From Thermovirgaceae bacterium (GTDB lineage Bacteria > Synergistota > Synergistia > Synergistales > Thermovirgaceae), in NCBI GenBank assembly GCA_046542505.1, contig JBKHBH010000029.1, forward strand, positions 1-21,469: DNA of 21,469 bases, read 5' to 3'. Shown piece by piece: positions 1,116 through 18,644 of this stretch. The notes under the pieces were generated by a model. That model was not told the DNA's origin and made no database searches. It saw only the letters and a list, made by a program, of their open reading frames with translations. Every line of letters starts with the position of its first letter. The first letter of the stretch is position 1. Made by a program: the position numbers and the translations under genes.

Positions 1116-1395
1116 CTATAACTTTTGCCGGGAAATAAATTCCAGATCGAGCCTCGGGGTGGAACTGATAAATTCTTTAAGCAGTTTGAACGCTCCGAAG
1201 GCGTCGCGAAGGTCCATCACTTCAGAGGAGGAATGTGTATACCTACGCGGTATAGAAAAATAACCCGTTGGGATTCTCTCACCAACGCGCCGCAACGCCC
1301 TACTGTAGGTGGTCCAAGAGCCTACTTCAGCATTGAACTGCACCGGGACGCCACTTGAACGCAGGACAGCATATAAGGCTTTTTTCAAAACCCAG
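1116..1395 (-). pseudogene. C-terminal remnant of an M42-family metallopeptidase
   Basis: The translation GVPVQF..GSWTTYS..IPTGYFSIPRRYTHSSSEVMDLRD matches the M42 C-terminus (GxTDA..GIPT..ISIPxRYxHSxxE). Only about 90 codons are recognisable, the TD motif is degenerate and there is no good RBS or start. The 5' boundary is approximate. Confidence 0.65.
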
Positions 1396-1521
1396 GTTGG
1401 ACACTCTTCCCTACGCACGCCTGCAACACACTTTCCTGAAAATTCGCTTTGCCCGCCCAAGCTTTTTGGATACGGATGGACATAAATGGAAAAGTGCAGT
1501 GGCAAGCTATTATGATCTAAT

Positions 1522-2253
1522 CTAGAAAACAGGAGTATCGGTACGCAAGAGATGTTTTTTTACATTTTCATCTTTTTCAAACTTTTCCAGGTTTTTACTG
1601 AGATGTTCCCGCATGTACCTGGATGCGGCTTCTTCATCTTGAGCAGCAATGGCTTCAAAAATCATTTTATGCTCGTTGAGTATAGTCTGCGGATCGATAT
1701 TCACGGCATAAAGCCTTTTTCGTCTAAAGGCTATGAAGTTTTTCATGAATGCCGAAAAGTTCTCGTAAATCCTCGACAAAAGGGGATTCTGGGAAGATTC
1801 GACAACGGAAGAATGAAAATAAGCATCCCAGGTACTGGCTTCACCTTCAATATCGGGAAAATCGACTTTTGCAAGGTTTTCAATACAGGACCGCATCTTA
1901 TCCAGATGATCTGGTTTTCTACGACGGGCAGACAAGGCCGCAGCGGGAATTTCAATCAGGAATCGCAATTCCATAACATGACGAATGTATTCCTCGGGCC
2001 ATATGGTCAGCGTTTCCAGATTCGTATCCAGTACGTCTAGAAGATTGTTCCGGATAAAGACACCTTGCCTCTCCCTAATTTCGACGATACCTTTTGCATC
2101 GAAAGCGACAAGAATTTCCCTGAGCAGGTTTCTGCTGATTTGAAGCTCATGAGCAAGTTCACGTTCAGGAGGGAGCTTTTCGACTCCTTTTCTCATCTGT
2201 CGCTTGATGATTTTCATGAGCTTTTCTCCAAGTTCTTTCCGCGATCGTGCCAT
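1522..2253 (-). CDS. GntR-family, FadR-subfamily transcriptional regulator (wHTH + FCD)
   Basis: HTH LPPERELAHELQISRNLLRE..GIVEIRERQG. FCD motifs ELRFLIE, DAYFH, SQNPLL, EHKMIFEAI and MREHL. SD-like AGGAG upstream. Confidence 0.93.
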   Translation of the reverse strand: MARSRKELGEKLMKIIKRQMRKGVEKLPPERELAHELQISRNLLREILVAFDAKGIVEIRERQGVFIRNNLLDVLDTNLETLTIWPEEYIRHVMELRFLIEIPAAALSARRRKPDHLDKMRSCIENLAKVDFPDIEGEASTWDAYFHSSVVESSQNPLLSRIYENFSAFMKNFIAFRRKRLYAVNIDPQTILNEHKMIFEAIAAQDEEAASRYMREHLSKNLEKFEKDENVKKHLLRTDTPVF

Positions 2254-2520
2254 TCACTGATCACTTCTCTCCTGCATTTACTATGTTTGCCGATTACAAC
2301 TTATTATCACCCATGGAATCCCACAACTACCAAAACTCATCTACACAACGTAAAAGATTGAGCAAAAAAAAAGACAGGGACGTTGCCGCTTGCCGCTGCT
2401 TTAATGTTCGTCGAGCATATTTTCATTATTCATAAACAGAAAACGTTTATCCTTTTAGCGGTTCCACACAGAGTTGCTCAGGGCGATGACGAGATGATGT
2501 ATCGCCCCATCAGTATCCCA

Positions 2521-3504
2521 TCAGGGAAGTATAAGCGTCTTTATTGGCGCCTCTTCTTTTCCACTGCATGCATGTTCGAAAGCACGCTGTATTTCATCCA
2601 GTCTGAATTCTACCTCTATGTATGGCATGATGTCCAAGATTTTTTGTTCCACAGGCCTCAATGCCTTTTGTGCCCACACATATCTCTCGTGCCAGGTATG
2701 ATGAACCAGGCATGTCGTGACGATACTGATTCCGTCATCATGCCACCGGCTGATATTAAGTCTGACAGGCTCGGTTATCCAGCTGTATAGAACAATCCTG
2801 CCGTTTCTTGCAACAATTTCCGACGCCAGGTTCATCGAAGATTCGGAGCCTGCGCATTCAACGACCACATCCGAGCCGGCTTCGCTCGAAACTTTTCCGG
2901 ACGCGCTACATATGTCGTCTTCGGGATGTAAAACAACATCTGCACCAAAGCGTTTAGCAACCTTCCGCTTTGCATCTGAGGGATCAACAGCTATAACCAT
3001 TGAAGCTCCCATCTTTTTTGCACACTGAACGATAACCTGCCCTGCGAAACCACACCCTATCACGGTCACCACATCGCCGAGCCGGATGCCGGCGTTCATA
3101 GCACTGAAAACCGCGCAAGCCGTCGGTTCACCAAGAGCAGTTTCGCGTTCGTTGAAGCTTTCAGGGGCAGGTTGCAGTTGCCACTCTTTTGCGGTGAAAT
3201 AATCAGCGAAATTGTTGTTCCAACCGAAGGAAATAACCCTGTCGCCTATGTTAAAATTGTTCACCCGTCTCCCTATCTCCACGATTTCCCCGCCACTTTC
3301 GTGTCCCAGTGGAAACGGGTAGGTTGGCGGGTGACGGAATTCGGTCGTAGAGGGTGGCATTTTTCCGCAAAAAATATTCTTGTCCGAGCCGCAGATGCCT
3401 ATAGCGGTGTTCTTGACCATGACCTCATCCGGGGCACAGCTTATTTCCTTTTCCACTATCGAGATTCGGCCTGGCTGATCTACCAACGCTGCCCGTGTCT
3501 TCAT
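2521..3504 (-). CDS. Zinc-dependent medium-chain alcohol/polyol dehydrogenase (threonine/sorbitol dehydrogenase-like)
   Basis: Catalytic Zn motifs GICGSD and LGHESGG, plus EPTAC, Rossmann motif GCGFAG and DVVVECAG. Confidence 0.9.
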   Translation of the reverse strand: MKTRAALVDQPGRISIVEKEISCAPDEVMVKNTAIGICGSDKNIFCGKMPPSTTEFRHPPTYPFPLGHESGGEIVEIGRRVNNFNIGDRVISFGWNNNFADYFTAKEWQLQPAPESFNERETALGEPTACAVFSAMNAGIRLGDVVTVIGCGFAGQVIVQCAKKMGASMVIAVDPSDAKRKVAKRFGADVVLHPEDDICSASGKVSSEAGSDVVVECAGSESSMNLASEIVARNGRIVLYSWITEPVRLNISRWHDDGISIVTTCLVHHTWHERYVWAQKALRPVEQKILDIMPYIEVEFRLDEIQRAFEHACSGKEEAPIKTLILP

Positions 3505-3562
3505 CGTGTACCTGTCCCCCTCAACCTGCTATTTCATTGCTGTTGTTTTTCTCGTCCTTTTT

Positions 3563-4837
3563 TTACATCAAAAGATCCGGGAGAAATGTGACAATTGACG
3601 GCACATAGGTTATCAGCAACAAGACACCTACAAGGATCAAAATCATTGGCCATACACGATAGGCTATCTTGTCGAAAGGTATTGCCGTGACTTTCTGAAC
3701 AACATAAAGAGCCATGCCCATTGGTGGAGTCAAAATGCCTATCAGCAGGTTTACGCACATGATAATGCCCAGATGAACTGGATCTATGCCCGCAGCGACC
3801 ATGGCGGGGACAAGTATTGGAGTAAGCAGTACGATTGCTGAATTGGTCTCAACAAAACATCCTACTACAAGAAGGGCTAAATTAAGAAAGAGGAGGATGA
3901 AGATCTTGCTGACCCCGGCCTTGCCAACGAATTCAACGAAAATCCTCGATGCCCCGGAAGCCGTCAACAACCACGAAAAAATGGCCGCAAAACCAATTAT
4001 AAGCATGATACTGGCGGAAGTTCGGGCCGACCCCTTGAGAACACTCCAGAAAGTCTTGAAAGTTATCGTCCTGTAATACAACCCGAGCATAAGGGAATAG
4101 GCGCTTGCTATAGCAGCGGCCTCCGTTGGGGTAAAAACACCTCCGAAAATGCCTCCGAGAATTATAACCGGCGATAGCAAAGAGAGAAAGGCTTTCTTGA
4201 AAGCAACCCAGACATTGGAAATGCTCGGTGCAGGGTGTATGACAAACTGTCCCGGATTACGTCTGCCTATAATCCAGATATAGCCCATCAGGGCAGTTCC
4301 CATGAGGATACCCGGAATCATCCCCGCAAGGAAAAGCCTGCCAACTGACACCCCTGCCAGCACACCGTAAAGGACATAAACAATGCTTGGTGGAATGATG
4401 GGTCCAATAGTCGAGGCAGCTGCGCAAATGGCGGCGGCTCGATCCTCAAGGAAACCGTCATCTTTCATTCCTTTTATCTGTATCGGCCCCAGTCCTCCGG
4501 CAGCCGCAAGTGCCGATCCACTCATGCTTGCAAAGAGCATACTCGTAAGGATCGTCACGTGTCCCATGCCCGCAGGCTTGTGACCTATCAGACTTCGGGC
4601 AAAATTCCAGAGTTTGTCTGTAACACCCGTCATATTCATCATGTTGCCGGCGAAGACAAAAAGAGGGAGCGCCATAAGTGGAAAACTGTCGAGCCCGACA
4701 AAAAGCCTCTGGGTCATTAGCGCATAAGGGAAGCCGTTGAAGTACATGACCAAAAGGGAAATGATACCAAGTGTAAATGCAATGGGAATTCCGGAAAACA
4801 GGAAGATAACGAAAAGAGCCAGCATGGCAAAAACCAT
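3563..4837 (-). CDS. dctM: TRAP transporter large permease
   Basis: Hydrophobic 424 aa with DSFPLMALPLF, SMSGSALA, IGPIIPPS, GGIFGGVFTPTEAA and GILTPPMG. Confidence 0.95.
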   Translation of the reverse strand: MVFAMLALFVIFLFSGIPIAFTLGIISLLVMYFNGFPYALMTQRLFVGLDSFPLMALPLFVFAGNMMNMTGVTDKLWNFARSLIGHKPAGMGHVTILTSMLFASMSGSALAAAGGLGPIQIKGMKDDGFLEDRAAAICAAASTIGPIIPPSIVYVLYGVLAGVSVGRLFLAGMIPGILMGTALMGYIWIIGRRNPGQFVIHPAPSISNVWVAFKKAFLSLLSPVIILGGIFGGVFTPTEAAAIASAYSLMLGLYYRTITFKTFWSVLKGSARTSASIMLIIGFAAIFSWLLTASGASRIFVEFVGKAGVSKIFILLFLNLALLVVGCFVETNSAIVLLTPILVPAMVAAGIDPVHLGIIMCVNLLIGILTPPMGMALYVVQKVTAIPFDKIAYRVWPMILILVGVLLLITYVPSIVTFLPDLLM

Positions 4838-5298
4838 TATTTCTCCCTCCTTTGGCCTGCCTTGAAAAGGTTGAAGAATGCCACAGCACCCATAAGCACG
4901 AACGCAACGGGAAGAATGGAATAAATAAGGTAGAGTGGAATACCGCTGCCAGGTGCTTCCTGACTACAGGCGACTGACGTCTGCATCAGCTTTACCCCGC
5001 TGTAAGCCATGAGAAAACAGAAAACCGACAGGATTCCACTGATCATGAACTCGAGAATATTCTTCAGAAAGGCGGGGAGTTTATTTATGAAATAATCCAT
5101 AAGGATATGGTCGTTTTCCTTGGTAATAATGATGCTGAAGACTAAAACGGAACAAATCATCGACCATCGCGCAAATTCTTCGGTCCATGGAGGTGGGGAA
5201 CTGAAAATATACCTTGCTACAATCTGGATAAGAACAAGGACTATCATTAAGCAGAAAAAAAAGGCGCCAATGCTCTCGATGGCTCGCTTGGTTTTCAA
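4837..5298 (-). CDS. dctQ: TRAP transporter small permease
   Basis: Four TM segments with QIVARY..PPWTEEFARW and HILMD. TTG start with GGAGG SD; the stop overlaps the dctM start (TAATG). Confidence 0.93.
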   Translation of the reverse strand: MKTKRAIESIGAFFFCLMIVLVLIQIVARYIFSSPPPWTEEFARWSMICSVLVFSIIITKENDHILMDYFINKLPAFLKNILEFMISGILSVFCFLMAYSGVKLMQTSVACSQEAPGSGIPLYLIYSILPVAFVLMGAVAFFNLFKAGQRREK

Positions 5299-5327
5299 GA
5301 AATAACCTCCTCTCAGTTCGCTCAGTT

Positions 5328-5361
5328 AGCGGGCCGTCTCCATTAATTGGGACGGCCCGCT
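5328..5361 (-). terminator. Intercistronic stem-loop between dctP and dctQ (partial terminator or mRNA stabiliser)
   Basis: 11-bp inverted repeat AGCGGGCCGTC / GACGGCCCGCT with no U-tract on the minus strand. Confidence 0.6.
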
Positions 5362-5375
5362 TATTGATTTATAGC

Positions 5376-6350
5376 CTATTTGGCTATATCTGCGATCTGC
5401 TGGTAGTATTCTTCCCCGAATTCCTCCGCCCAGTCTTCGTGCAGAGGCTGTACAGCTTCCTTGAAGGGTGCCAAATCAGGTTCGGTGATGGTGACTCCAT
5501 GTTCCTTCTCAATTTCCTCAAGAAGTGCCGCTTCGCGCTCCATGGCCACATTCCTTTGGTAGTGGGTGGCTTCCATGGCTGCTTCCTTTACGGCTTCCTG
5601 TTGCTCTTCAGATAATTTGTTCCAGAAAACCTTGCTTACAAGGAGTGGTGCATCGAGATAAATATGTCTTGTCATAGCAAGGAAGTCCTGAACTTCGTAA
5701 AATTTTTGCGTCATGATGTGGAAAATCGGATTTTCCTGGCCTTTGACCACACCTTGCTGGAGAGCAGAGTAAAGCTCTGGGAAGGGGATCGGAACAGGCT
5801 TGGCACCGAAAGCAATGAATGTGTCTCTGAACATGGGGCTTTCCGGCGTCCTTATTTTGAATCCTTTCAGGTCACCCATTGTTTCGATCTTCTTGCTCGA
5901 GGTAACGAGACGCCATCCGTTTTCCATGTTTGCCAGCCGCACGATTCCCATCTTGTCGAGCCCTTCGTAAACTTTGTTTGAGATTGGGCTGTCAAGAAAG
6001 GCATAGACGTGCTCGGGGCTTTCCCACATGTAAGGAAGCGGAATTATCGAGGCCATCGGCACAAAACTGTCGATGGGTCCTTCAATGGCAAACTCAAGCG
6101 TTCCCATCTGAAGGCTTTCCATCATGTCCCGGTCTCCGCCCAGCTGGCCTCCAGGATAGGTCTCCACCTCAACTGCGCCATTGGTTTTCTCTTTGACAAG
6201 TTCGGCAAACTTCTGCGCACCGACCTCAAAGATGTGGTCCGGAGCCCCCACGTGACCCAATTTTGCCTTCAAGGGAGCCGAAATCGCCATGCTGCCAAAA
6301 GAAACCACCAAAACCATTGCCATAAACAGGACAAAGCTTCTCCTTCTCAT
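5376..6350 (-). CDS. dctP: TRAP transporter periplasmic substrate-binding protein
   Basis: N-terminal signal peptide, YPGGQLG, NGWR, DLKGFKIRTP with the conserved anion-binding Arg, and PFPELYSALQQGVVKGQENP. GAGGAGG SD. Confidence 0.95.
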   Translation of the reverse strand: MRRRSFVLFMAMVLVVSFGSMAISAPLKAKLGHVGAPDHIFEVGAQKFAELVKEKTNGAVEVETYPGGQLGGDRDMMESLQMGTLEFAIEGPIDSFVPMASIIPLPYMWESPEHVYAFLDSPISNKVYEGLDKMGIVRLANMENGWRLVTSSKKIETMGDLKGFKIRTPESPMFRDTFIAFGAKPVPIPFPELYSALQQGVVKGQENPIFHIMTQKFYEVQDFLAMTRHIYLDAPLLVSKVFWNKLSEEQQEAVKEAAMEATHYQRNVAMEREAALLEEIEKEHGVTITEPDLAPFKEAVQPLHEDWAEEFGEEYYQQIADIAK

Positions 6351-6366
6351 AACGTAACCTCCTCGA

Positions 6367-7269
6367 TTAGTGTTGTTCCTTGCTGGAAATGCTTGTGCCG
6401 GTCACCTTTTCATATACCTTGACCACTGCGGAATGATCCTTGTTTCCAAGTCCGAGCGCACGTGCTCCTTCATAAGTCTGTTGCGCCAAGGCTGCGAAGG
6501 GGAGTGGAACGTTCAGCCCTTTTCCGGCATCCAGGGCAAGACAGATATCTTTGTGCTGAAGGTTGACCATGAAACCTGGCTCATAGTCATCCTCAAGCAT
6601 ATGAGGAACCCGGGTCTCCATGGCCCATGAACGCGCCGAACCGGAAGCAAGAACTTTCTGAAGCACTTCAGGGTCGATTCCAGCTTTGACACCCAGAGTG
6701 AAAGCTTCGGCAATCGCACACAGGCTCAGTCCGACAACGATTTGGTTACACATTTTCGCAGTCTGGCCAGCGCTGGTTTCTCCAACATGGACAAAATTGC
6801 CAAGGACAGAGAAAACCGGCTTTGCCTCTTCGAGATCCTTTTCTGAAGCACCCACCATGATCCCCAGCTTCCCTTTCTCTGCGCCGGCGACTCCTCCTGT
6901 TACCGGAGCGTCGATCAGCCTGAGTTGCCGTTCTTTCGCCTGTTCATTGAGTTTCTTTGTTACCAACGGGGAAATAGAACTCATGTCGATCAGCAGGGAT
7001 CCTTCGGTTGCTCCTTGAAATACCCCTTCGGGGCCCGCAAGGACTTCTTCAACATGTGGGGAATTCGGCAGCATTGTAATGATCAGCTTCGCCTGCGAAG
7101 CCACATCAGCAGGAGAATTCCCTACATCAGCCCCAATCGATTTGAACTCCTTCAGCACCGATTCAACTATGTCGTAAACAACAACGTCGTAACCTGCCTT
7201 GAGAAGATTTCGGGCCATGGGCCTTCCCATGTTGCCCAACCCTATAAATCCAATTTTCAACAATATCAC
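6367..7269 (-). CDS. NAD(P)-dependent beta-hydroxyacid dehydrogenase (tartronate semialdehyde reductase / 3-hydroxyisobutyrate dehydrogenase family)
   Basis: IGFIGLGNMGRPMA, ITMLPNSPHV, DMSSISP, DAPVTGG, catalytic AKMCNQ and FMVNLQHKD. The real start may be the TTG at 7263 or 7260. Confidence 0.92.
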   Translation of the reverse strand: MILLKIGFIGLGNMGRPMARNLLKAGYDVVVYDIVESVLKEFKSIGADVGNSPADVASQAKLIITMLPNSPHVEEVLAGPEGVFQGATEGSLLIDMSSISPLVTKKLNEQAKERQLRLIDAPVTGGVAGAEKGKLGIMVGASEKDLEEAKPVFSVLGNFVHVGETSAGQTAKMCNQIVVGLSLCAIAEAFTLGVKAGIDPEVLQKVLASGSARSWAMETRVPHMLEDDYEPGFMVNLQHKDICLALDAGKGLNVPLPFAALAQQTYEGARALGLGNKDHSAVVKVYEKVTGTSISSKEQH

Positions 7270-7293
7270 CTCACCTTTCTCCGCTATTTTTGG

Positions 7294-9153
7294 TTACCCG
7301 TACATTTCCCGGGCTACGTCCTCAAGCCCGAGCCGTTTTAGGGTCTCCTGTTTTGGGAGCCCTGTACCCCTATCCCAACCACGGGCTTCATAGGTCTCGT
7401 CGAGCAGCTTGTCAAGGGTTTCTCTGGGAATGTATTTGCCCTTCGATGGTCCACTGGGGATAGGTTCTTCCATGAATCTCCAGGGAAGTTTGTCGTCTTG
7501 CCTGGTTTCTCCTTCACGGATGTTCGTTGCGCGCTCCAGGGTATAGACTCGATCACTGATATCTTTGAGGTCATTCAGGGAAAGATCCATTCCCGTCGTC
7601 ACCTTGACGAGTCTTACATGATCTTCTGTCAGCCCTGTCGGTCCAAAAATGCCCTCAAGCATCCTGCACATGATCATGGTGTCCATGAACGTCGTCATTC
7701 GCTGAACTTCAACTTCATAAGTTCCCTTTCCTTCGATGGTGTTAGGATCCACAATACCGGCTCTTTCAGCGGTAGGTCTGCCGTCCTGATGAGTACCCCC
7801 TCTGTTCGAGGTAGCGTACCCTATCGCCATCCCAGGGAGCCCCCGGGCGGAATGAGCGGGAACCTCCAGGCCTTTGACCTGTATGGCATACTTCCAGGCA
7901 TCTCCGCCAAGATGCTCGGCGAAACGGACGGTTCCTTCTCCCATGACCCATCCAATGCCTTCACGGTTGCCGATCTTTTCCACGAGCTTGACCATGTTTT
8001 CATGATCACCGAAGGAGAGATCAATCCCGTCGAGAGCATTTTTATCAAGGAGGCCTCGTTCCGCGCATTCCATCGCCATCGAGATGACGCCGCCGCCCGA
8101 GATGGTGTCAAGACCATACTCGTCGCAAAGCCTATCGGCGGCTATGATTGCGTCTATTTCTCCGACACCGCAGTTTGACCCCAGTGAAAAAAGCGTTTCA
8201 TACTCGGGCCCGACGCTCAAATATTCGCCATACTGACCTTCACGCGCCTTATTTACCTTTGCGCAGGCAATGGCACAGCCGAAGCACGCATCATTGGCAA
8301 CAAAATTGTTTTCCTTCAGGTATTTCCCACCTATCAGTTCTGCTTTCTCAAATTGTTCTTCCTGGTAATTTCTGGTTCCAAGCATACCCAGCTTGTTATT
8401 GACCTCTACTACAGCAGCGGTCCCGTAGGTCGGAAGTCCGGTTCCTGTTCCGGGGTTTTCACGGATACGCTCCCGGATTTCACTCGCGAACTCCTCAAAG
8501 GCTTCAATGTCCGCAACCTTGACGGATCCGGTCCCATGGACCGCCACGGCCTTCAGGTTCTTTGAACCCATAACGGCGCCTACTCCTCCACGCCCCGCTG
8601 CATGAACTCCGGATATAATGCAGGCAATTCTGGCAAGCTTTTCTCCTGCAGGTCCTATACAGGCCGTTGCAATGTCTTTTTCGCCGGTCAGCTCTCTCAA
8701 CTTGTTCTGGACGTCGAAAGTTTTGCCACCCCAAAGAGTTTCAGCATCGCGTATCTCAACCTTGTCATCATTGATCCAGAGATAGACAGGACTGTCAGCT
8801 TTTCCTTCCAGTACGATCCCGTCATAACCCGCATATTTCAAATAGGCTCCGAATTCTCCACCAACGTAGGAATCGATAAACCTGTTGTTCAGCGGAGATT
8901 TTGTTGCGATCATGAGTCTTGACCCGCAGACGGGCATGTTTGTCCCCGTTACGGGCCCGGTGAAAAACAAAAGCTTGTTTTGTTCACTCAACGGATCGAC
9001 ACCGGCAGGTATTTCGTCATAAATAATCTTTGCCGCAAAACCGTTTCCTCCAATAAACTGTTCCGCAAAACCATCTTCCACTTTTTCCGTCTCAATGCTT
9101 CGTTCCGAGAGGTTGACCCGGAGTATTTTGCCCATATAACCACTGTATTTCAT
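7294..9153 (-). CDS. aor: Aldehyde:ferredoxin oxidoreductase family (tungstopterin WOR) large subunit
   Basis: 619 aa with GYMGKILRVNL, KSPL, AGYDGIV, pterin-binding AAGRGGVGAVMGSKNLKA, [4Fe-4S] motif CFGCAIAC plus a distal Cys (IMCR), GPEYET, DEYGLDTIS and YEARGWD..GLP. Confidence 0.95.
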   Translation of the reverse strand: MKYSGYMGKILRVNLSERSIETEKVEDGFAEQFIGGNGFAAKIIYDEIPAGVDPLSEQNKLLFFTGPVTGTNMPVCGSRLMIATKSPLNNRFIDSYVGGEFGAYLKYAGYDGIVLEGKADSPVYLWINDDKVEIRDAETLWGGKTFDVQNKLRELTGEKDIATACIGPAGEKLARIACIISGVHAAGRGGVGAVMGSKNLKAVAVHGTGSVKVADIEAFEEFASEIRERIRENPGTGTGLPTYGTAAVVEVNNKLGMLGTRNYQEEQFEKAELIGGKYLKENNFVANDACFGCAIACAKVNKAREGQYGEYLSVGPEYETLFSLGSNCGVGEIDAIIAADRLCDEYGLDTISGGGVISMAMECAERGLLDKNALDGIDLSFGDHENMVKLVEKIGNREGIGWVMGEGTVRFAEHLGGDAWKYAIQVKGLEVPAHSARGLPGMAIGYATSNRGGTHQDGRPTAERAGIVDPNTIEGKGTYEVEVQRMTTFMDTMIMCRMLEGIFGPTGLTEDHVRLVKVTTGMDLSLNDLKDISDRVYTLERATNIREGETRQDDKLPWRFMEEPIPSGPSKGKYIPRETLDKLLDETYEARGWDRGTGLPKQETLKRLGLEDVAREMYG

Positions 9154-9155
9154 CT

Positions 9156-9434
9156 TTATCCCCCCACCACTGGACTGATGAAGAGCAACTCGTCTCCATC
9201 ATTCAAGGGTCGTTCAAATGCTTCCGGAAATCGCACCATTTGGCCGTTAATTGCAACGATTAAATATCGTGGTTTGCCGGTAGACGGCTCTACAACCTGT
9301 TTGTAAGGCTCTCCGTTGTCGATATGCTTCATCTTTTCGAGCACATCAGCAACAGTCCCACTGGCATCAAAAAACACTGAAAATTCATTCAATCCCGGAA
9401 TCCCTTCAATGTAAACCTGGACCGAAATCCCCAT
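9156..9434 (-). CDS. MoaD/ThiS-family sulfur carrier (ubiquitin-like)
   Basis: About 92 aa ending in LNDGDELLFISPVVGG (C-terminal di-Gly). Start moved to ATG 9434 behind a GAGGTG SD. Confidence 0.88.
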   Translation of the reverse strand: MGISVQVYIEGIPGLNEFSVFFDASGTVADVLEKMKHIDNGEPYKQVVEPSTGKPRYLIVAINGQMVRFPEAFERPLNDGDELLFISPVVGG

Positions 9435-9464
9435 ACACGCTTCACACCTCACCGGCTCCAAGAA

Positions 9465-9866
9465 TCAATCCTCCAGTGTTATTGCAACTTTGGGGCACTG
9501 TTTGATACATTCCGGCGAACCACCACAAAGATCGCATTTGAAGGCTTTTTTCGTTTCATTGTTAATGAAGATGGCATCAAACGGGCAGGCGTCCACACAT
9601 TTCCCGCACCCGATACATTTTTCTTCATCAACGAGCCAGGTTCCCAACTCATCCTGACTGATTGCATTTACCGGGCATGCCTCGGCACAGGGAGCATCAT
9701 CACATTGCCTGCAATAATCCATACCCAGTTCATGAGGCAACTTCTCCCTGTAAATCCTGATCCGTGCATGCGAGGGCTGATAGACTTGCTCTTTCGCTTC
9801 GCTGCAAGCAAGCATACAAATCCCGCATCCTGTGCACTTTCCGCGATCAACTACGATATGGGCCAT
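9465..9866 (-). CDS. 4x[4Fe-4S] electron-transfer subunit (DmsB/HycB-like), probable WOR small subunit
   Basis: Four Cys motifs: CTGCGICMLAC, CRQCDDAPCAEACP, CIGCGKCVDACP and CDLCGGSPECIKQCP. ATG 9866 follows AAGGAGG. Confidence 0.92.
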   Translation of the reverse strand: MAHIVVDRGKCTGCGICMLACSEAKEQVYQPSHARIRIYREKLPHELGMDYCRQCDDAPCAEACPVNAISQDELGTWLVDEEKCIGCGKCVDACPFDAIFINNETKKAFKCDLCGGSPECIKQCPKVAITLED

Positions 9867-9888
9867 TCTGCGCCCTCCTTCCAAAAAC

Positions 9889-10527
9889 CTATTGCTTCGC
9901 CTTATTGCCTTCAGCCATCATCCCGAGGATCCGCTCCACGCGTGGGGTATTGACAACACCACACACGCATTGGCTCGCAATCGTCTCAGCCGCATCTTTG
10001 AGTTTAGTCTTGCCGTTGGCTACCTCTTCAGCCATTTTGTCGACAAGATCAAAAGGAATCATTCCGTGGCCACACATCGTCGATATTTCAAGGACGGGTT
10101 CTTCCGGAAGTTTCTCTTTCTTGCCCCAGATTCCAAGAGAACGCTCAACAGTGTGCATTTTCATTTCGTTTTTCCTGCAACACTGATCGATCGAATGAAC
10201 AATGCCGGATACAACGATGGAAAGACCCAAATCTGCTGTCTTTAGTTCTTTTAAGACAACAGAGAGAGTTTCCTCATCGTTAAAAACGGCGTGCACGATG
10301 GAATTGTCCATCATATCCTTGCCGACCCCTTCAAGACCCAGCATGTATTTGTTTCCTTTTTTCATGTCACCCATATTGGATGGATTGTGTTTCTTTACGA
10401 TTTCGAAAAATTTCTCGAATTTGGGTGCACTGTTCTTTGCATTAACACTTTGGGCTGCAATGGCAAAAACTACAAAATCGTCTTTCAAGGATTCTTCGCT
10501 ACCCCGTCTATGCAATGTATGAGTCAT
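9889..10527 (-). CDS. Conserved hypothetical protein with putative metal/Fe-S ligands
   Basis: Tightly packed in the operon with a GGAGG SD; start is ATG 10527 or GTG 10533. Motifs MTHTLHRRG, GLSIVVSG, CC, TMCGHG and CVCG. I cannot assign a function. Confidence 0.85.
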   Translation of the reverse strand: MTHTLHRRGSEESLKDDFVVFAIAAQSVNAKNSAPKFEKFFEIVKKHNPSNMGDMKKGNKYMLGLEGVGKDMMDNSIVHAVFNDEETLSVVLKELKTADLGLSIVVSGIVHSIDQCCRKNEMKMHTVERSLGIWGKKEKLPEEPVLEISTMCGHGMIPFDLVDKMAEEVANGKTKLKDAAETIASQCVCGVVNTPRVERILGMMAEGNKAKQ

Positions 10528-10532
10528 TTTCA

Positions 10533-11249
10533 CTACACCTCCGCAAGTGGTCTTCCAAGTCCAACGTTGACTTTTCCGTTGACCGAGTAAGCAAGTCCCA
10601 TTTCCTCCAGCACTCTTTCAAAATAGGGAACACCCGAATCATCAGTCACGCCGCAAATGTCCAGACTGAAAACGGTTTCAATTTCACCCGAGACTTTTTC
10701 CAACTCTTCAAGGACTTCCTTGATCTTTTCATCAGACACAAAGAACTCGACTATCGCGGACAGAGCCTTTTCCTGAAGATACTTGTCCTCGATTTCTCCC
10801 GTCTTTTTGTCCTTCATTATTGCTGTGACGGGGTTAAGAGGTTCAAACTCGACATTGTGTTTTGCACAGGCCTGCGCAACTTTCTGGACATCGTAGAAAC
10901 GCGTGCCTGTACCCGGACGGCCAAGTTCCGCAGCAATCCCTGTGTACCCTTTCTTGAACCGGCCTGTCACATCGTTCGTTTTCATTTCTTCGGTTCCCCG
11001 ACCAGGGACGGATGTGCTGCTGTGACTGATCAGGGGATTACTGAAGGCCTTTCTCAAATTTCTCATCTCATCAAGTTCGGGCTCGTAAATCGCTTCCACG
11101 GGACAGACATTGCTTGACTTGCACACCCCACACTCAACGCATTCATCCTGATCTATGAATGCTTTCCCTTCCCGCATTTCGATGCAACTCATAGGGCAAT
11201 AATTCGTACAAAGACTGCAACCAATGCATTTCTCCCTGTCGATTTTCAT
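10533..11249 (-). CDS. N-terminal 2x[4Fe-4S] ferredoxin domain fused to an uncharacterised domain
   Basis: CIGCSLCTNYCP and CVECGVCKSSNVCP, followed by VPGRGTEEMKTNDVTGRF and ELGRPGTGTRF. Start moved to ATG 11249 behind a GAAAGGAAGG SD. Confidence 0.88.
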   Translation of the reverse strand: MKIDREKCIGCSLCTNYCPMSCIEMREGKAFIDQDECVECGVCKSSNVCPVEAIYEPELDEMRNLRKAFSNPLISHSSTSVPGRGTEEMKTNDVTGRFKKGYTGIAAELGRPGTGTRFYDVQKVAQACAKHNVEFEPLNPVTAIMKDKKTGEIEDKYLQEKALSAIVEFFVSDEKIKEVLEELEKVSGEIETVFSLDICGVTDDSGVPYFERVLEEMGLAYSVNGKVNVGLGRPLAEV

Positions 11250-11312
11250 GAGATACCTTCCTTTCAAATATTGAATCATGCTTGAACAAGTGACATAAAT
11301 GTGTTTCTTCTC

Positions 11313-11323
11313 TGGTAGGACCA
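11313..11323. promoter_or_regulatory. Putative FadR-subfamily operator TGGT-N3-ACCA
   Basis: TGGTAGGACCA fits the PdhR/LldR-type core. It lies between the predicted -10 and the first gene of an operon that is linked to a FadR-type regulator. Confidence 0.65.
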
Positions 11324-11341
11324 TGGTTTATTTTTCCGACA

Positions 11342-11371
11342 ATTATACCATATGCATCGCGAAATATGCAA
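11342..11371 (-). promoter_or_regulatory. Sigma70-type promoter of the WOR/TRAP operon
   Basis: Minus strand TTGCAT-N18-TATAAT with an extended -10 (TGGTATAAT). Confidence 0.7.
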
Positions 11372-12949: not shown

Positions 12950-13789
12950 TCAAGCCGCCTGTCCGCTGTCGCCGGAGGACCCGTCCCTTGCAGCCTCTTT
13001 TACCTGATGCCGCTTCCCTGGTTCGGCCGCCCCGCTGGCATCAAGCCCCAAAGTCTCTATCCTGAGGGCTCCCTTGGGGCACACGGCAACGCAGTCCATG
13101 CAGCCGTAACATTCGGGACTCACGGGAAGCGTCTTCGATCCCCCTTCAGCCCGGGTCTTTTCGGCCTGTTCCAGAAGCGGGTCCAGAAGCCTTTCGGAAA
13201 GGTCGCACACCGACGTGCAGAGCCTGCAGTTCACGCACTTGTCCGCGTCCAGGACCACGGGGCTGCGTTTCGTCGCAGTAGCCATCAGCGAGCCCAGTGT
13301 TCCGCCCGGACAAATATGTGCGCAGAAAGACCGCGGCTCGAAAACGAGGGCCATGACGGCCGCAAGGGCAAGCATCACCTGGCAGAACCGCAGAAAGAGA
13401 AAGCCGTGCTGCGCGTAGGATGCGTATGCCACGGGAAGCCCCTTGTGAATGTTGACGAGCCAGACGATCCATCCGAAATAGGCGAGCATTCCCATGAAGA
13501 AAACTCCCTGGAGGATGCGTCCCTTGTTGAGCCACCGGGGAAAGGGAACCAGTCTCAGCGAGATTTTGCTCCAGATGAGATCAATGAACCCCCCGTTGGG
13601 ACACAGCATCCCGCACCAGATCTTCCCCCTGAAGGCGGCAAGCAGGCCTCCAAGGGCAATCATGAGAACGCAGAACCACCACTGCTTCATGATGAACACG
13701 GCCACGATGAAGGCGATCACAAGTTGCAACTGGAGGACGCTGCGAATGCCCTTCCAGGTTTTTGAATCGAGCTGGTTTTTTCCTGCCAT
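12950..13789 (-). CDS. Membrane 4Fe-4S-binding protein (NapH/MauN/YccM-like polyferredoxin)
   Basis: About four TM helices, two CxxxCP motifs (WCGMLCP, FCAHICP) and a C-terminal dicluster (CVNCRLCTSVC, CYGCMDCVAVCP). Confidence 0.9.
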   Translation of the reverse strand: MAGKNQLDSKTWKGIRSVLQLQLVIAFIVAVFIMKQWWFCVLMIALGGLLAAFRGKIWCGMLCPNGGFIDLIWSKISLRLVPFPRWLNKGRILQGVFFMGMLAYFGWIVWLVNIHKGLPVAYASYAQHGFLFLRFCQVMLALAAVMALVFEPRSFCAHICPGGTLGSLMATATKRSPVVLDADKCVNCRLCTSVCDLSERLLDPLLEQAEKTRAEGGSKTLPVSPECYGCMDCVAVCPKGALRIETLGLDASGAAEPGKRHQVKEAARDGSSGDSGQAA

Positions 13790-13797
13790 GAAACAAA

Positions 13798-13855
13798 ACC
13801 CCCTCTGGGTATGTAGATTCTCGTAAAATCTACAATACCCTTAGGGGTATGTCAA
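13798..13855 (-). promoter_or_regulatory. Sigma70 promoter with two CsoR/CstR/RcnR-like G/C-tract operators
   Basis: Minus strand TTGACA-N17-TAGATT. The palindrome ATACCC-TTAG-GGGTAT (13835-13850) fills the spacer, and a second site ACCCCCTCTGGGTA (13798-13811) overlaps the SD. Confidence 0.7.
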
Positions 13856-14280
13856 GGAATTTCTTTTTTCTCTCCGTGACCGGGGAAGATTTCTTCCGGG
13901 AGGTCGGGATATTTCTCTTTCAGGGACGCGAGCCATGATTTTTCCTCGAATCCTTCCTCGAGGGGCATGACCTCCCGAACGGTCCACTCGTCGCAAGGTG
14001 CTTCAAGCAGCGCGCCGTATGTTTCGTATCGCTGGGAACCGTCCACAGACTGGGGCTCCGTCAGGGCAAAACACCATCCGCCCTTGACCTTCATCCAGCG
14101 GACCACGAAGACGACCTCGAGATCGAACCGGTTGCGGATATCATCCCTCATGACGTCCAGGACAGCCTTCCGTTCAGGCGTCCCCCAGGCGGGCGTAAAG
14201 GCCTCCTCTGCCGAGGATGGTTGAAGGAAGACAAGCGTCACTGCCATAAAGGAAAGGACAAGAACAATCGTCTTTCGCAT
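13852..14280 (-). CDS. Secreted hypothetical protein
   Basis: Sec signal peptide MRKTIVLVLSFMAVTLVFLQPSSA and an AAGGAG SD. 142 aa, divergent from ygiQ. Confidence 0.8.
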   Translation of the reverse strand: MRKTIVLVLSFMAVTLVFLQPSSAEEAFTPAWGTPERKAVLDVMRDDIRNRFDLEVVFVVRWMKVKGGWCFALTEPQSVDGSQRYETYGALLEAPCDEWTVREVMPLEEGFEEKSWLASLKEKYPDLPEEIFPGHGEKKEIP

Positions 14281-17321: not shown

Positions 17322-17342
17322 CGACAAGACTCCATGCAATCC

Positions 17343-18461
17343 TCAGTAGCGGAATATGGCCGCAATATCACCACCGCCGGGAACGGCGTCCGCCTCAACG
17401 GCATAGACTGTTCCTCCGGTCTGCAATGTCTGCGCGGCGGCAAGGTCGAGAAGATCCCTTCCCGTTGCTTCGTCATCCACATCCACGGTGTTGTTTTCCT
17501 GGTCGAAACGGCCGATGACCTGGCGTCCCAAGGCGACAAAAAGCGTATCTACCCGGCCGGAAACCGCAGCCGGGACGACTTCCTCCACCTGGTTCGATGC
17601 CTTGCCCGTACCCTGAAGATCGCCGAACCGTTCTCTCGCTTCCTGCTGGGCCTTGTTGAACAGGGGCTCTACAATCTCCCAGGCCTTTTTGTGGAGGTCC
17701 CGCAGGCTCGCATTCTCGGGACTGCCTTCGATGGCCTCTTCCACAAGGCCCTGATAGGTGTTCGCCTCTCTGTAAATGGAGCAGATGTAGGACACCCCTG
17801 CCAGAACAAGCGGGCTTCCGCCCTTGAGGATGTCCCTGAGGCCACCGTCGACCTTTCTGAAGAACCGGAAGATATTGTCCTTGAAATCCTCGTCGCCGGC
17901 GCCATGTGCGTGGAACTGGCCCGATGTACCGCCTCCGAACTGTCCCTGCTTTTCCAGGGGTTCGTACTGGAGGGCCTCGGAAAGGCTTTCCGGAACGCCT
18001 TCAGGCTCAAGCTCCCTGACGCTGTCTTTTGTGCAGTGAAAGAGCCGGATCTTCTTCTGGCTCAATCCCAGGATGTAGAATTCCTCGTCTCCGCTCAAAA
18101 TGGAAAGCAGCGGTTTGATGTGGAAATGTTCCGAAACCATGACCAAATCGGTCACTCTCATGGGAAGACGGAAGATCCTCGAAAAACCGGGGGCCAGAAA
18201 CGCTGCGAGCCCGGCGGACTGCTTCTCCCAGAACATGGAATCCGAAAGAAGGGCCCGTGCGGGTTCCTCGATTTCCTCTTTCTGCTGGGATTTGAGCTGC
18301 GAGTTCTCCAGCCGGCTTTCAACCTCCTTGAGAAGGGTCTTGAACCGGATCTGGCTCTTCTTCGGGTCCTGTGGCACAGGATTCTCCATGTACAGGGAGA
18401 TGCATGGTCCTTCGGCGTGCTCTGCCAACGTGAATACTTCATCCCTCGTCAGTGCCTTCAT
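17343..18461 (-). CDS. Bacterial archaeo-eukaryotic release factor-like protein (baeRF family 3/7-like)
   Basis: CISLYM..IRFKTLL, FHIKPLL, FYILGLSQKKIRLF, PLVLAGV, AAVSGRVDTLFV and the aeRF1 domain-3-like end GGTVYAV..IAAIFRY. ATG 18461 follows AAGGAGG. Confidence 0.85.
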   Translation of the reverse strand: MKALTRDEVFTLAEHAEGPCISLYMENPVPQDPKKSQIRFKTLLKEVESRLENSQLKSQQKEEIEEPARALLSDSMFWEKQSAGLAAFLAPGFSRIFRLPMRVTDLVMVSEHFHIKPLLSILSGDEEFYILGLSQKKIRLFHCTKDSVRELEPEGVPESLSEALQYEPLEKQGQFGGGTSGQFHAHGAGDEDFKDNIFRFFRKVDGGLRDILKGGSPLVLAGVSYICSIYREANTYQGLVEEAIEGSPENASLRDLHKKAWEIVEPLFNKAQQEARERFGDLQGTGKASNQVEEVVPAAVSGRVDTLFVALGRQVIGRFDQENNTVDVDDEATGRDLLDLAAAQTLQTGGTVYAVEADAVPGGGDIAAIFRY

Positions 18462-18644
18462 GGGCAACGCCTCCTTTTAAAATTACACAGGGGAGGATTT
18501 TCTCCTCCCCGTTTTCCCCTTGCTTCTTCGGTTTTTCTCTCTGCAGTGATTCCGGCCTCTCCATATAAAGACCTCCGTCTTCGCCGCATTTCGGCTGCGA
18601 AAAGCACCGCTGAAACACTTCGAGATAACACGGCGTTTTGGTAA

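Follow-up and report, generated by a model that had tools for sequence, protein, structure and literature searches.

Why would an aldehyde oxidoreductase (AOR) of the tungsten type be encoded in a compact gene block that also carries a full solute importer, two dehydrogenases and a regulator? This question is raised by eleven genes, all on the minus strand between positions 1522 and 11324, in a 21,469-nucleotide (nt) stretch of DNA from Thermovirgaceae bacterium (phylum Synergistota; assembly GCA_046542505.1, contig JBKHBH010000029.1, positions 1 to 21,469), hereafter the window. The window lies on contig 67 of a host genome of 2.14 Mb in 142 contigs that is 93.5% complete. We interpret the block as a repressor-controlled catabolic island for one imported hydroxy-carboxylate, in which the AOR serves as a pathway enzyme, and give this reading a probability of about 0.6. 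An earlier reading of the DNA letters (the original prediction) had preferred a dedicated pathway to general aldehyde detoxification. That preference was supported in part: conservation of the gene set, the binding signature of the importer, a candidate operator and the lack of a matching described pathway all favoured it.

Pfam and NCBIfam scans of the window proteins confirmed the gene content first proposed, ten co-oriented and tightly spaced genes accompanied by a FadR-type regulator. The features of the block are as follows.

1522..2253, minus strand: g01, GntR-family regulator with an FCD ligand domain, FadR subfamily type (Pfam GntR 1.1e-09, FCD 5e-23)
2521..3504, minus strand: g02, MDR Zn-dependent dehydrogenase (ZnADH), polyol/threonine-dehydrogenase-like (ADH_N, ADH_zinc_N)
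3563..4837, minus strand: g03, TRAP large permease DctM (Pfam DctM 1.1e-104; TIGR00786 412 bits, above its cut-off)
4837..5298, minus strand: g04, TRAP small permease DctQ (Pfam DctQ 4.3e-28), its start preceded by the Shine-Dalgarno (SD)-like GAGGAGGT
5322..5367, no strand: palindrome, its 23-nt arms 83% complementary, lying between the stop of dctP and the start of dctQ (sequence scan)
5376..6350, minus strand: g05, TRAP solute-binding protein DctP (Pfam DctP 2.4e-86; TIGR00787 above its cut-off)
6367..7269, minus strand: g06, beta-hydroxyacid dehydrogenase, bHAD (NAD_binding_2 4.1e-52, NAD_binding_11 2e-39)
7294..9153, minus strand: g07, AOR-family pyranopterin subunit, WorL (AFOR_N 2.1e-78, residues 8-208; AFOR_C 8.3e-129, residues 222-610)
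9156..9461, minus strand: g08, MoaD/ThiS-like small protein of the WorX type (Pfam ThiS 6.3e-10; C-terminus ...SPVVGG)
9465..9884, minus strand: g09, polyferredoxin of the WorS type with 16 Cys in four cluster motifs (Fer4 families); the ATG at 9866 may be its start
9889..10527, minus strand: g10, protein of 212 amino acids (aa) with no Pfam or NCBIfam match (N-terminus MTHTLHR at 10527)
10533..11249, minus strand: g11, 238-aa protein with an N-terminal 2x[4Fe-4S] ferredoxin domain (Fer4 families, residues 1-60 only) and a C-terminal domain without family
11313..11323, no strand: candidate operator TGGTCCTACCA, a TGGT-N3-ACCA palindrome, the only perfect match in the window
11342..11371, minus strand: sigma-70-like promoter TTGCAT-18 nt-TATAAT, read by eye

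The gaps between the ten structural genes (2521-11249) ranged from -1 to 77 nt, the AOR gene being joined to the genes on both sides with a spacing of 2-24 nt, and a 267-nt gap separated the regulator from the structural genes. The start of g11 most likely lies at 11249 rather than 11324, because its homologues and its protein-atlas record begin there and the SD-like AAGGAAGG precedes it. The palindrome at 5322-5367 may form an mRNA-stabilising hairpin after the binding-protein gene, protecting the upstream part of the transcript.

Orthologues of the AOR (58-78% identity) were found in five other places spanning two phyla, and in all five the same genes stood in the same order up to the contig limits, as the neighbourhood check proposed with the original prediction had asked. 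The most complete, in genome G006 (locus L019, AOR 78%), had the complete set of eleven, order unchanged, at 47-80% identity, 57% for g01, plus a second, divergent GntR gene. A 2.9-kb contig of genome G008 (L108) held a partial AOR (77%), the bHAD (74%) and a DctP cut off by the contig end (80%). One metagenome contig (L116, AOR 76%) ran through g11, g10, WorS, WorX, AOR, bHAD, DctP and DctQ to its end, and a second (L117, AOR 77%) had these genes together with an upstream GntR gene and DctM, again to the contig end. The fifth, L049 (AOR 58%), came from a metagenome-assembled genome labelled Peptococcaceae bacterium BRH_c4a and read sigma-54 activator, g11, g10, WorS, WorX, IS110 transposase on the other strand, AOR, MFS transporter, bHAD (50%), a 104-aa open reading frame (ORF), ZnADH (51%) and an IlvD/Edd-family dehydratase. 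The enzymes were kept in L049, and the importer type and the regulator type were both exchanged, with an MFS transporter and, for GntR, a sigma-54 activator. The IS110-family transposase gene of L049 (11596-12909, minus strand) was inserted between WorX and WorL.

Among the more distant AORs (35-49% identity) of the same metagenome scan, g11/g10 lay nearby in only 1 of 77. The eleven genes are not a chance run, because the set is conserved and base composition breaks at both ends of the block (see below). The statement that the set matches no described pathway also held: none was found in the literature searched, which covered few subscription journals, and the enzymes scored below curated cut-offs.

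By sequence, g07 is a member of the AOR/WOR family (WOR, tungsten oxidoreductase) with an atypical pocket. Its nearest solved chains were 9mqx_D (482 bits), 9g7j (456), 1aor (438) and 8c0z (404), and it was farther from FOR (366 bits), WOR5 (280) and BamB (205). Alignment to 1aor, the Pyrococcus furiosus enzyme (PfAOR), showed that the four [4Fe-4S] cysteines are kept, the motifs DACFGCAIAC and IMCRML aligning with those of 1aor; we take the PfAOR cluster residues to be C288, C291, C295 and C494. Four pocket residues, Thr243, Glu313, Tyr427 and His448 in PfAOR numbering, are listed in PMC13328260, and three of these are retained in g07. The exception is Tyr427, which is replaced by His (PAHSARG versus PAYDPRG); Cys447 is likewise replaced, by Thr. 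Tyr427 is reported to be among the residues nearly invariant in aldehyde-oxidising WORs (PMC13328260), and its equivalent in WorL of A. mobile, Tyr423, contacts the modelled substrate (PMC12318220). In an alignment of 20 AORs, made up of the window protein, its seven full-length paralogues in the host genome and AORs adjoining g11/g10 elsewhere, the combination of GLEVPAHSARG and SNRGGTHQD was common to the window, G006 and L049 only.

The small genes beside g07 were consistent with this assignment. The best solved chains for g09 were 9mqx_E (3.2e-30), 8c0z_C (AorA) and 6x1o_B (the WOR5 small subunit), 9MQX being the WorABCSL complex of A. mobile (PMC12318220). WorX, the MoaD-like gene, is considered a cofactor-processing factor, and Class II WORs are described as WorL plus WorS without an FAD subunit or WorABC, linked to ferredoxin (PMC13328260). 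A Pfam scan of the block proteins found no Pyr_redox or Bfu-type domain. The AOR of the block is Class II by subunit content, because WorL and WorS occur here without WorN and without WorABC. As to the supply of the metal, the host encodes a WtpA tungstate-binding protein (found with PF13531) scoring 362 bits, above the equivalog cut-off of 355, and its gene lies with that of a WtpC-like ATPase on host contig C121 (L112, 287-2373). A search of the host genome for TupA with PF12849 found only PstS.

The host genome has at least ten further AOR-family places, at 29-45% identity to g07 (contigs C101, C5, C12, C39, C128, C46, C138, C141, C10 and C133). These roughly ten paralogues would suit a reading in which the AOR is a general aldehyde detoxifier and the adjacent transporter operon is unrelated to it, and the enzymes characterised in the nearest clade accept many aldehydes for oxidation and have been assigned to detoxification (PMC13328260; PMC12318220). 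We consider this very improbable for g07. Its neighbours travel with the AOR subclade in five of five places, including another phylum where the transporter has been exchanged; the changed pocket residue is common to the three full-length members compared (window, G006 and L049); and the 2-24 nt spacing ties the AOR to both neighbours.

A pathway role for the AOR directs attention to g11 and g10, on which the original prediction had no comment beyond calling them uncharacterised Fe-S-type proteins. We scanned one genome for each of 185,579 species and found at least 603 matching places, of which 79 loci were kept for counting the pair and its neighbours. In 78 of the 79, g11 lay directly upstream of g10 on the same strand. 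The pair occurs in Bacillota, Chloroflexota, Thermodesulfobacteriota, Bacteroidales and the host's phylum, usually beside carboxylate importers of the TTT or TRAP type; the host genome has a single copy, and up to six matches, with tandem pairs, were seen in certain relatives. When 1.84 billion representatives were searched with a profile, 890 clusters (at 50% identity) fell in the g10 family at E of at most 1e-3, 560 at 1e-10 or below and 251 at 1e-30 or below. Nearly all g10 relatives have 200-230 residues and align from residue 1. Only three fused g11-g10 forms were seen, all unnamed. The idea that g11 and g10 form a split 6-hydroxynicotinate reductase, as in nicotinate fermentation, was considered and was neither supported nor excluded, the fused forms carrying no name. 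In two loci of the neighbouring family f2 (L011 and L012; G028:C18 and G019:C290), the best g10 matches contain one TAA, most likely because the match reads through into the next tandem gene, as it runs to residue 212, past the 207-aa frame.

Neighbours of the pair were counted with the window proteins by tblastn within 8 kb of g10. A WorS-like polyferredoxin was present in 18 of the 79 loci, TctC and TctA in 16 each, DctM in 15, ZnADH in 14 (12 of them at 43-53% identity), bHAD in 13, DctP in 12, AOR in 10 and GntR/FCD in 6. Further families were obtained by clustering the neighbouring ORFs and scanning representatives; these counts are lower bounds, as the ORF picker lost the pair in some loci. 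They comprised a 495-aa protein whose first ~90 residues resemble a CO dehydrogenase cluster-B/D domain (at least 12 of 79), Pyr_redox_2 proteins (at least 11), CitA-like sensor kinases with response regulators (at least 10-11), amidohydrolases (at least 10), sigma-54 activators (at least 6) and RraA-like aldolases (at least 5). Other neighbours were GlcD/CCG proteins, PdxA, IlvD/Edd and UxaA/GarD dehydratases, FAA hydrolases, Ldh_2 and SDRs, and in relatives within the host's own order TctCBA, PdxA, an aconitase-type protein, Iso_dh, LarA and HpcH. Such families belong to the catabolism of acid sugars and hydroxy acids. Many loci had the pair with an importer only, with or without an MDR dehydrogenase (e.g., L029-L038, L048, L050 and L062).

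The pair is not an AOR accessory, because it mostly occurs without an AOR (present in 10 of 79 loci) and its neighbours are of acid-sugar and hydroxy-acid families. Judged by this distribution, g11/g10 is an independent, widespread two-subunit module, and the context suggests that it is probably a key enzyme of the pathway. The MDR dehydrogenase g02 is a recurrent partner of the module, its homologues (43-53% identity) adjoining the pair in 12 of the 79 species loci. Both points, like the island origin described below, had been missed in the original prediction. A recurrent set of five genes was also observed, namely a polyferredoxin, the 495-aa protein, g11, g10 and a Pyr_redox_2 flavoprotein of the NAD(P)H type, sometimes followed by an MDR dehydrogenase (L051, L054, L055, L057, L060, L061, L063, L064, L065, L071, L077 and L082). 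It looks like an undescribed multi-subunit oxidoreductase.

Neither g10 nor the C-terminal domain of g11 had a Pfam or NCBIfam match, a profile search of the Protein Data Bank (PDB) for the pair gave nothing better than E 0.24, and the protein atlas held only the pair's own unnamed clusters. The AlphaFold models were of high confidence (pLDDT 94.0 for g10 and 90.3 for g11). When the g10 model was compared with 48,161 solved chains by VIA-align, none reached Z of 5, the best being 1wuu_A (Z 4.8, rmsd 2.7 Å, 75 aligned). For g11, three rows at Z of 8 or more all fell on the ferredoxin domain (e.g., 7vzg_B, Z 8.3, rmsd 1.9 Å, 60 aligned), and its C-terminal domain gave only generic alpha/beta-sandwich rows with Z of at most 7.0 (best 2nyi_B, rmsd 3.4 Å, 83 aligned). 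Foldseek returned nothing at E of 0.001 or below. An hhalign comparison of g10 with g11 gave a probability of 1.3%, no sign of kinship between the subunits.

Invariant in g11 were eight Cys in two CxxCxxCxxxC(P) motifs and the motifs GRGTEE.KT..VT, GRP and K...GLG, and invariant in g10 were C152, C187, C189, H3, H6, R7, D17, N29, H125 and H154. The complex of the two was predicted with a score of 0.93, the best control scoring 0.01; the mark applied was passed by 116 of the 157 solved complexes and 2 of the 215 mismatched pairs, counts that are only rough because our own alignments were used. The runs agreed in at least 88% of contacts, with partner pLDDT of at least 91. The predicted interface comprised residues 1-9, 122-137, 153-161 and 185-189 of g10 and residues 15-19, 40-46, 86-95, 111-114 and 219-234 of g11. 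In both chains it takes in the invariant motifs and the regions around the clusters, with some 30 invariant polar residues lying outside the cluster motifs. The modelling supports a heterodimer in which a composite site would adjoin a chain of clusters.

One could also regard g11/g10 as an electron-transfer module linking WorS to a redox pool, the chemistry being left to the dehydrogenases and the AOR alone. The pair directly adjoins WorS in the window, g11 starts with a classical 2x[4Fe-4S] ferredoxin domain, and elsewhere WorS-like polyferredoxins stand beside the pair in 12-18 of 79 loci and a Pyr_redox_2 protein in at least 11. Set against this are the many loci with a carboxylate importer only, which have no ferredoxin-linked enzyme to serve, the up to six paralogues per genome and the tandem duplicates, which fit diversified substrate specificity, and the ~30 invariant polar residues of the predicted interface that lie outside the cluster motifs. 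We judge a purely electron-carrying role rather unlikely. A more far-reaching proposal is that the pair founds a new class of Fe-S enzymes acting on hydroxy or sugar acids. The composite interface site would lie by a three-Cys (+ His) cluster fed by the built-in ferredoxin domain, and a shared WorS would wire the pair to the AOR, so that aldehyde oxidation would directly power a reductive or radical reaction of low potential, for instance a dehydroxylation or dehydration, both reactions taking place on one carbon skeleton inside a single complex. Taken jointly, these details make for a tentative proposal that we hold to be doubtful.

If g11/g10 acts on an acid, which acid is imported? DctP, DctQ and DctM are encoded together and form a full TRAP set. 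The nearest solved chains to the binding protein g05 were 4p47 (1.2e-59, 205 bits) and 4pdd (8.6e-56, 193 bits), followed by sialic-acid binders (SiaP). The original prediction had pointed to a conserved DctP arginine, and the alignment to 4P47 bore this out: R147, R167, N207, the aromatic F190 and D73 of g05 align with R152, R173, N213, Y196 and D76, the whole signature being kept. For TRAP binders of the 4P47 group, the closed structures are reported to hold pantoate or erythronate, Arg152 and Asn213 of 4P47 lend support through hydrogen bonds, a hydroxyl of the ligand is typically bound by the acidic residue, and the signature residues are tied to a carboxylate with a neighbouring hydroxyl (PMC11668362).

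The dehydrogenases were assigned at the level of families. The best solved relative of g06 was 3cky, a 2-(hydroxymethyl)glutarate dehydrogenase (1.9e-80). Against NCBIfam models g06 scored 307 and 304 bits for tartronate-semialdehyde reductase (cut-offs 397 and 341), 278 for HIBADH (292), 226 for L-threonate dehydrogenase (350) and 213 for sulfolactaldehyde reductase (348), below every curated equivalog cut-off. For g02 likewise no NCBIfam equivalog cut-off was reached, its PDB matches were weak and its characterised relatives distant; reading its sequence directly, we take GICGSD, GHESGG and GEPTAC to stand at the catalytic zinc-ligand places, and the four-Cys structural-zinc loop is lacking. 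From the relations of DctP and the bHAD, candidate substrates would be 2-hydroxy acids resembling pantoate or a tetronate, or acids bearing a hydroxymethyl group at the beta position, and the substrate is most likely a 2-hydroxy acid with further hydroxyl groups. The old aerobic pantoate route via aldopantoate and dimethylmalate follows the same alcohol-aldehyde-acid logic. PanB (ketopantoate hydroxymethyltransferase) was observed to adjoin g11/g10 in at least 6 of 79 loci (L034, L072, L080, L103, L104 and L106), a possible link of the pair to pantoate or 2-oxoisovalerate metabolism.

The same importer and dehydrogenase raise the prospect of a C2-C3 organosulfonate such as 2,3-dihydroxypropanesulfonate, which g06 would convert to sulfolactaldehyde and the AOR to sulfolactate, g02 then oxidising the latter and g11/g10 being a new Fe-S enzyme of desulfonation. 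g06 matches sulfolactaldehyde 3-reductase at 213 bits and 6sm7 at 1.7e-47, and the isethionate binder IseP, which matches g05 at 1.4e-40, keeps the same signature residues (PMC11668362); aliphatic sulfonates are substrates of a P. furiosus WOR of Class II (PMC13328260). Yet the carboxylate-specific relatives give g06 higher scores (307, 304 and 278 bits), g05 matches 4p47 and 4pdd (1e-59 and 9e-56) better than it does IseP, and g07 is nearer the AOR clade (438-482 bits) than WOR5 (280 bits). The Pfam scan found no sulfite-handling gene in the window, and in other loci g11/g10 is accompanied by carboxylate and acid-sugar families. A sulfonate substrate is accordingly improbable in our view, and we retain a hydroxy-carboxylate.

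Control of the block by g01 is suggested by its domains and by a palindrome upstream of the first gene. Pfam assigned residues 13-67 of g01 to a GntR winged helix-turn-helix and residues 93-219 to FCD; its best NCBIfam match was LldR at 106 bits, far under the cut-off of 311. TGGT-N3-ACCA is the palindromic operator type of FadR-type GntR regulators. TGGTCCTACCA (11313-11323) is the only perfect instance in the window, and the 20-kb locus of G006 (L019) likewise has a single match, TGGTACTACCA. In each case the site falls between a -10-like box and the first gene, an equivalent place in two genera. The weight of the candidate operator lies in this shared position, because the pattern alone also turns up in shuffled sequence. 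The ten structural genes may be transcribed from one promoter, as originally proposed: a candidate match was read by eye. The regulator probably has its own promoter. The consensus promoter and terminator scan of the window was not above chance, and TTGCAT-18-TATAAT was not in its list.

Based on these observations, we propose the following scheme. DctPQM would import the acid, and the NAD(P) dehydrogenases g06 and g02 would oxidise its alcohol groups, one of them yielding an aldehyde. The tungsten-type AOR WorL/WorS, with its altered pocket, would convert the aldehyde to a carboxylate and pass the electrons onto its polyferredoxin. The g11/g10 Fe-S heterodimer would carry out a further substrate-specific step, either a redox reaction via its own ferredoxin domain or an Fe-S-dependent dehydration. 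The GntR/FCD protein would repress at TGGT-N3-ACCA until the substrate or an intermediate binds. The sequences themselves show the gene content, the conserved set, the foreign composition, the strict pairing of g11 and g10 with their predicted binding, the altered AOR pocket and the DctP signature. We infer the rest of the scheme, namely the substrate and the order in which it is processed, the direction in which the AOR works, what g11/g10 catalyses, the use of tungsten and the repression.

Several points weigh against this reading. No gene reached an equivalog cut-off, each enzymatic step being assigned at family level, and no fold or sequence links g11/g10 to any enzyme, its catalytic role being drawn from context only. 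Four of the five conserved places are close relatives (AOR 76-78%) and not independent, which makes L049 the sole distant witness. The sequence of g07 does not tell tungsten from molybdenum, and the direction of the AOR step is not fixed, because AORs are reversible. The isethionate binder shares the DctP signature, which would leave room for a sulfonate. Co-transcription is argued from spacing alone, the TGGT-N3-ACCA pattern turned up at least once in 25 of 100 shuffled versions of the window, and a relaxed search found no second operator site before g01.

The question of direction leads to a reductive counterpart of the scheme, in which a dicarboxylate would be imported, the AOR would reduce one of its carboxyl groups to the aldehyde with reduced ferredoxin and the dehydrogenases would continue to the hydroxy acid, the whole acting as a fermenter's electron sink. 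Tartronate-semialdehyde reductase and 2-(hydroxymethyl)glutarate dehydrogenase, to which g06 is closest, are physiologically aldehyde reductases, and the host genome is rich in ferredoxin-linked AOR paralogues. The reversibility of AOR-family enzymes, which is generally held, also appears in the title of a reference cited in PMC13328260. However, DctP keeps an acidic residue for ligand hydroxyls and the Arg/Asn pair, which a hydroxy acid fits better than a plain dicarboxylate (PMC11668362), a repressor-controlled importer operon is more typical of catabolism, and an energy-conserving step is not evident. We consider the reductive direction unlikely and favour catabolism of an imported hydroxy-carboxylate.

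The composition of the block was unlike that of its surroundings. The GC content was 0.483 in 1522-11371 and 0.575 and 0.579 in the flanks, and the GC3 of the eleven block genes was 0.43-0.58, compared with 0.60-0.75 in seven flanking genes, six of which were at 0.70 or above. The low-GC stretch extended beyond the regulator (0.442 in 1001-2000) and included, directly after it, one further feature.

1116..1505, minus strand: M42 peptidase remnant, a 129-aa ORF corresponding to the C-terminal part (Pfam Peptidase_M42 2.1e-07, profile positions 224-292 of 292)

In a survey of a sample of 268 genomes of the phylum, host included, an AOR of at least 77% identity was present in two of the 267 others (G006 and G008), both from the host's family and other genera. 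No AOR orthologue was found in five genomes of the host's genus, one of them a 99%-complete single contig. The G006 copy was likewise of low GC (0.498, with flanks of 0.551 and 0.558), and it lies in a similar chromosomal region, as the YgiQ and HD-GYP proteins recur ~10 kb away. No tRNA and no flanking direct repeats were found at the island ends. Judging from its low GC and patchy distribution, the block at 1116-11371 is a horizontally acquired island, and the M42 remnant is probably a decayed gene that came with it. Full-length M42 genes were observed to adjoin g11/g10 pairs in L032, L039 and L059. Native genes flanking the block encode a NapH-like membrane ferredoxin-type protein (12950-13789, minus strand) and two ORFs of 142 and 436 aa without Pfam or NCBIfam match (13852-14280, minus strand, and 17334-18644, plus strand); the window also holds the YgiQ radical-SAM protein and an SBP_bac_3-PAS-HD-GYP protein.

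These findings bear on more than one locus. Only 5 of 92 tungsten oxidoreductase clades are reported to have a defined physiological role (PMC13328260). An AOR subclade tied to an importer, two dehydrogenases and a regulator makes such a role testable, and a WOR subclade would gain a defined physiological pathway if the new-class proposal for g11/g10 were true. The least understood genes, g11 and g10, are the most widely conserved element of the block, and the module, with no name, family model or structural relative, has a relevance beyond it. Once its reaction were assigned, many acid-catabolic clusters of anaerobes could be annotated together.

Among known systems, the closest for g07 are the AOR-clade WORs, PfAOR (1aor), AorABC of A. 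aromaticum (8c0z) and WorABCSL of A. mobile (9mqx). They share with the block the WorL domains, the cluster cysteines, E313, H448 and T243, the four-cluster WorS and a MoaD-like WorX gene in the operon. The block differs in having neither an FAD subunit (WorN) nor a bifurcating WorABC, and g07 differs in the changes of Tyr427 to His and Cys447 to Thr. Those enzymes have been assigned to broad aldehyde detoxification, whereas g07 is embedded in an importer and dehydrogenase operon. Clade 87, with AmWorL, PfAOR and AaAOR, is reported to be without heterodimeric WorSL enzymes (PMC12318220); three of the four nearest solved relatives of g07 fall in it.

For the importer, the pantoate- and erythronate-type TRAP binders, 4P47 and 4PDD were the best matches of g05, with all five signature positions conserved; the match is strong at family level only and compares the signature residues rather than the rest of the pocket. 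4P47 itself is described as open and ligand-free, and most ligands of the group co-purified (PMC11668362). The resemblance of g11/g10 to the two-subunit Fe-S enzymes TtdAB and L-serine dehydratase and to LutABC is one of kind only, namely small subunits, Cys-bound clusters and importer neighbours, with no sequence, profile or fold relation. LutB, like g11, has a 2x[4Fe-4S] domain fused to an unknown domain. In contrast to these enzymes, g10 has only three invariant Cys with an adjacent invariant His.

The bHADs 3cky, GarR and 3-hydroxyisobutyrate dehydrogenase belong to the same two-domain fold family as g06, which comes close to them, below the cut-offs. These enzymes convert, in either direction, between a primary alcohol that lies beta to a carboxylate and the corresponding aldehyde. 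The non-phosphorylative sugar-acid routes have the same logic, free of kinases and CoA enzymes, in which an acid sugar passes through dehydration or dehydrogenation to an aldehyde and then to an acid, as in the Weimberg-type 2-oxoglutarate semialdehyde dehydrogenase step and the glyceraldehyde:ferredoxin oxidoreductase of the non-phosphorylative Entner-Doudoroff branch. Unlike those routes, the block has no aldolase and no dehydratase of the IlvD/Edd, UxaA/GarD or FAA-hydrolase type, and none of its enzymes is orthologous to a characterised pathway enzyme; any dehydration would consequently fall to g11/g10. In anaerobic archaea, it is an AOR-family enzyme that performs the aldehyde step of the non-phosphorylative route.

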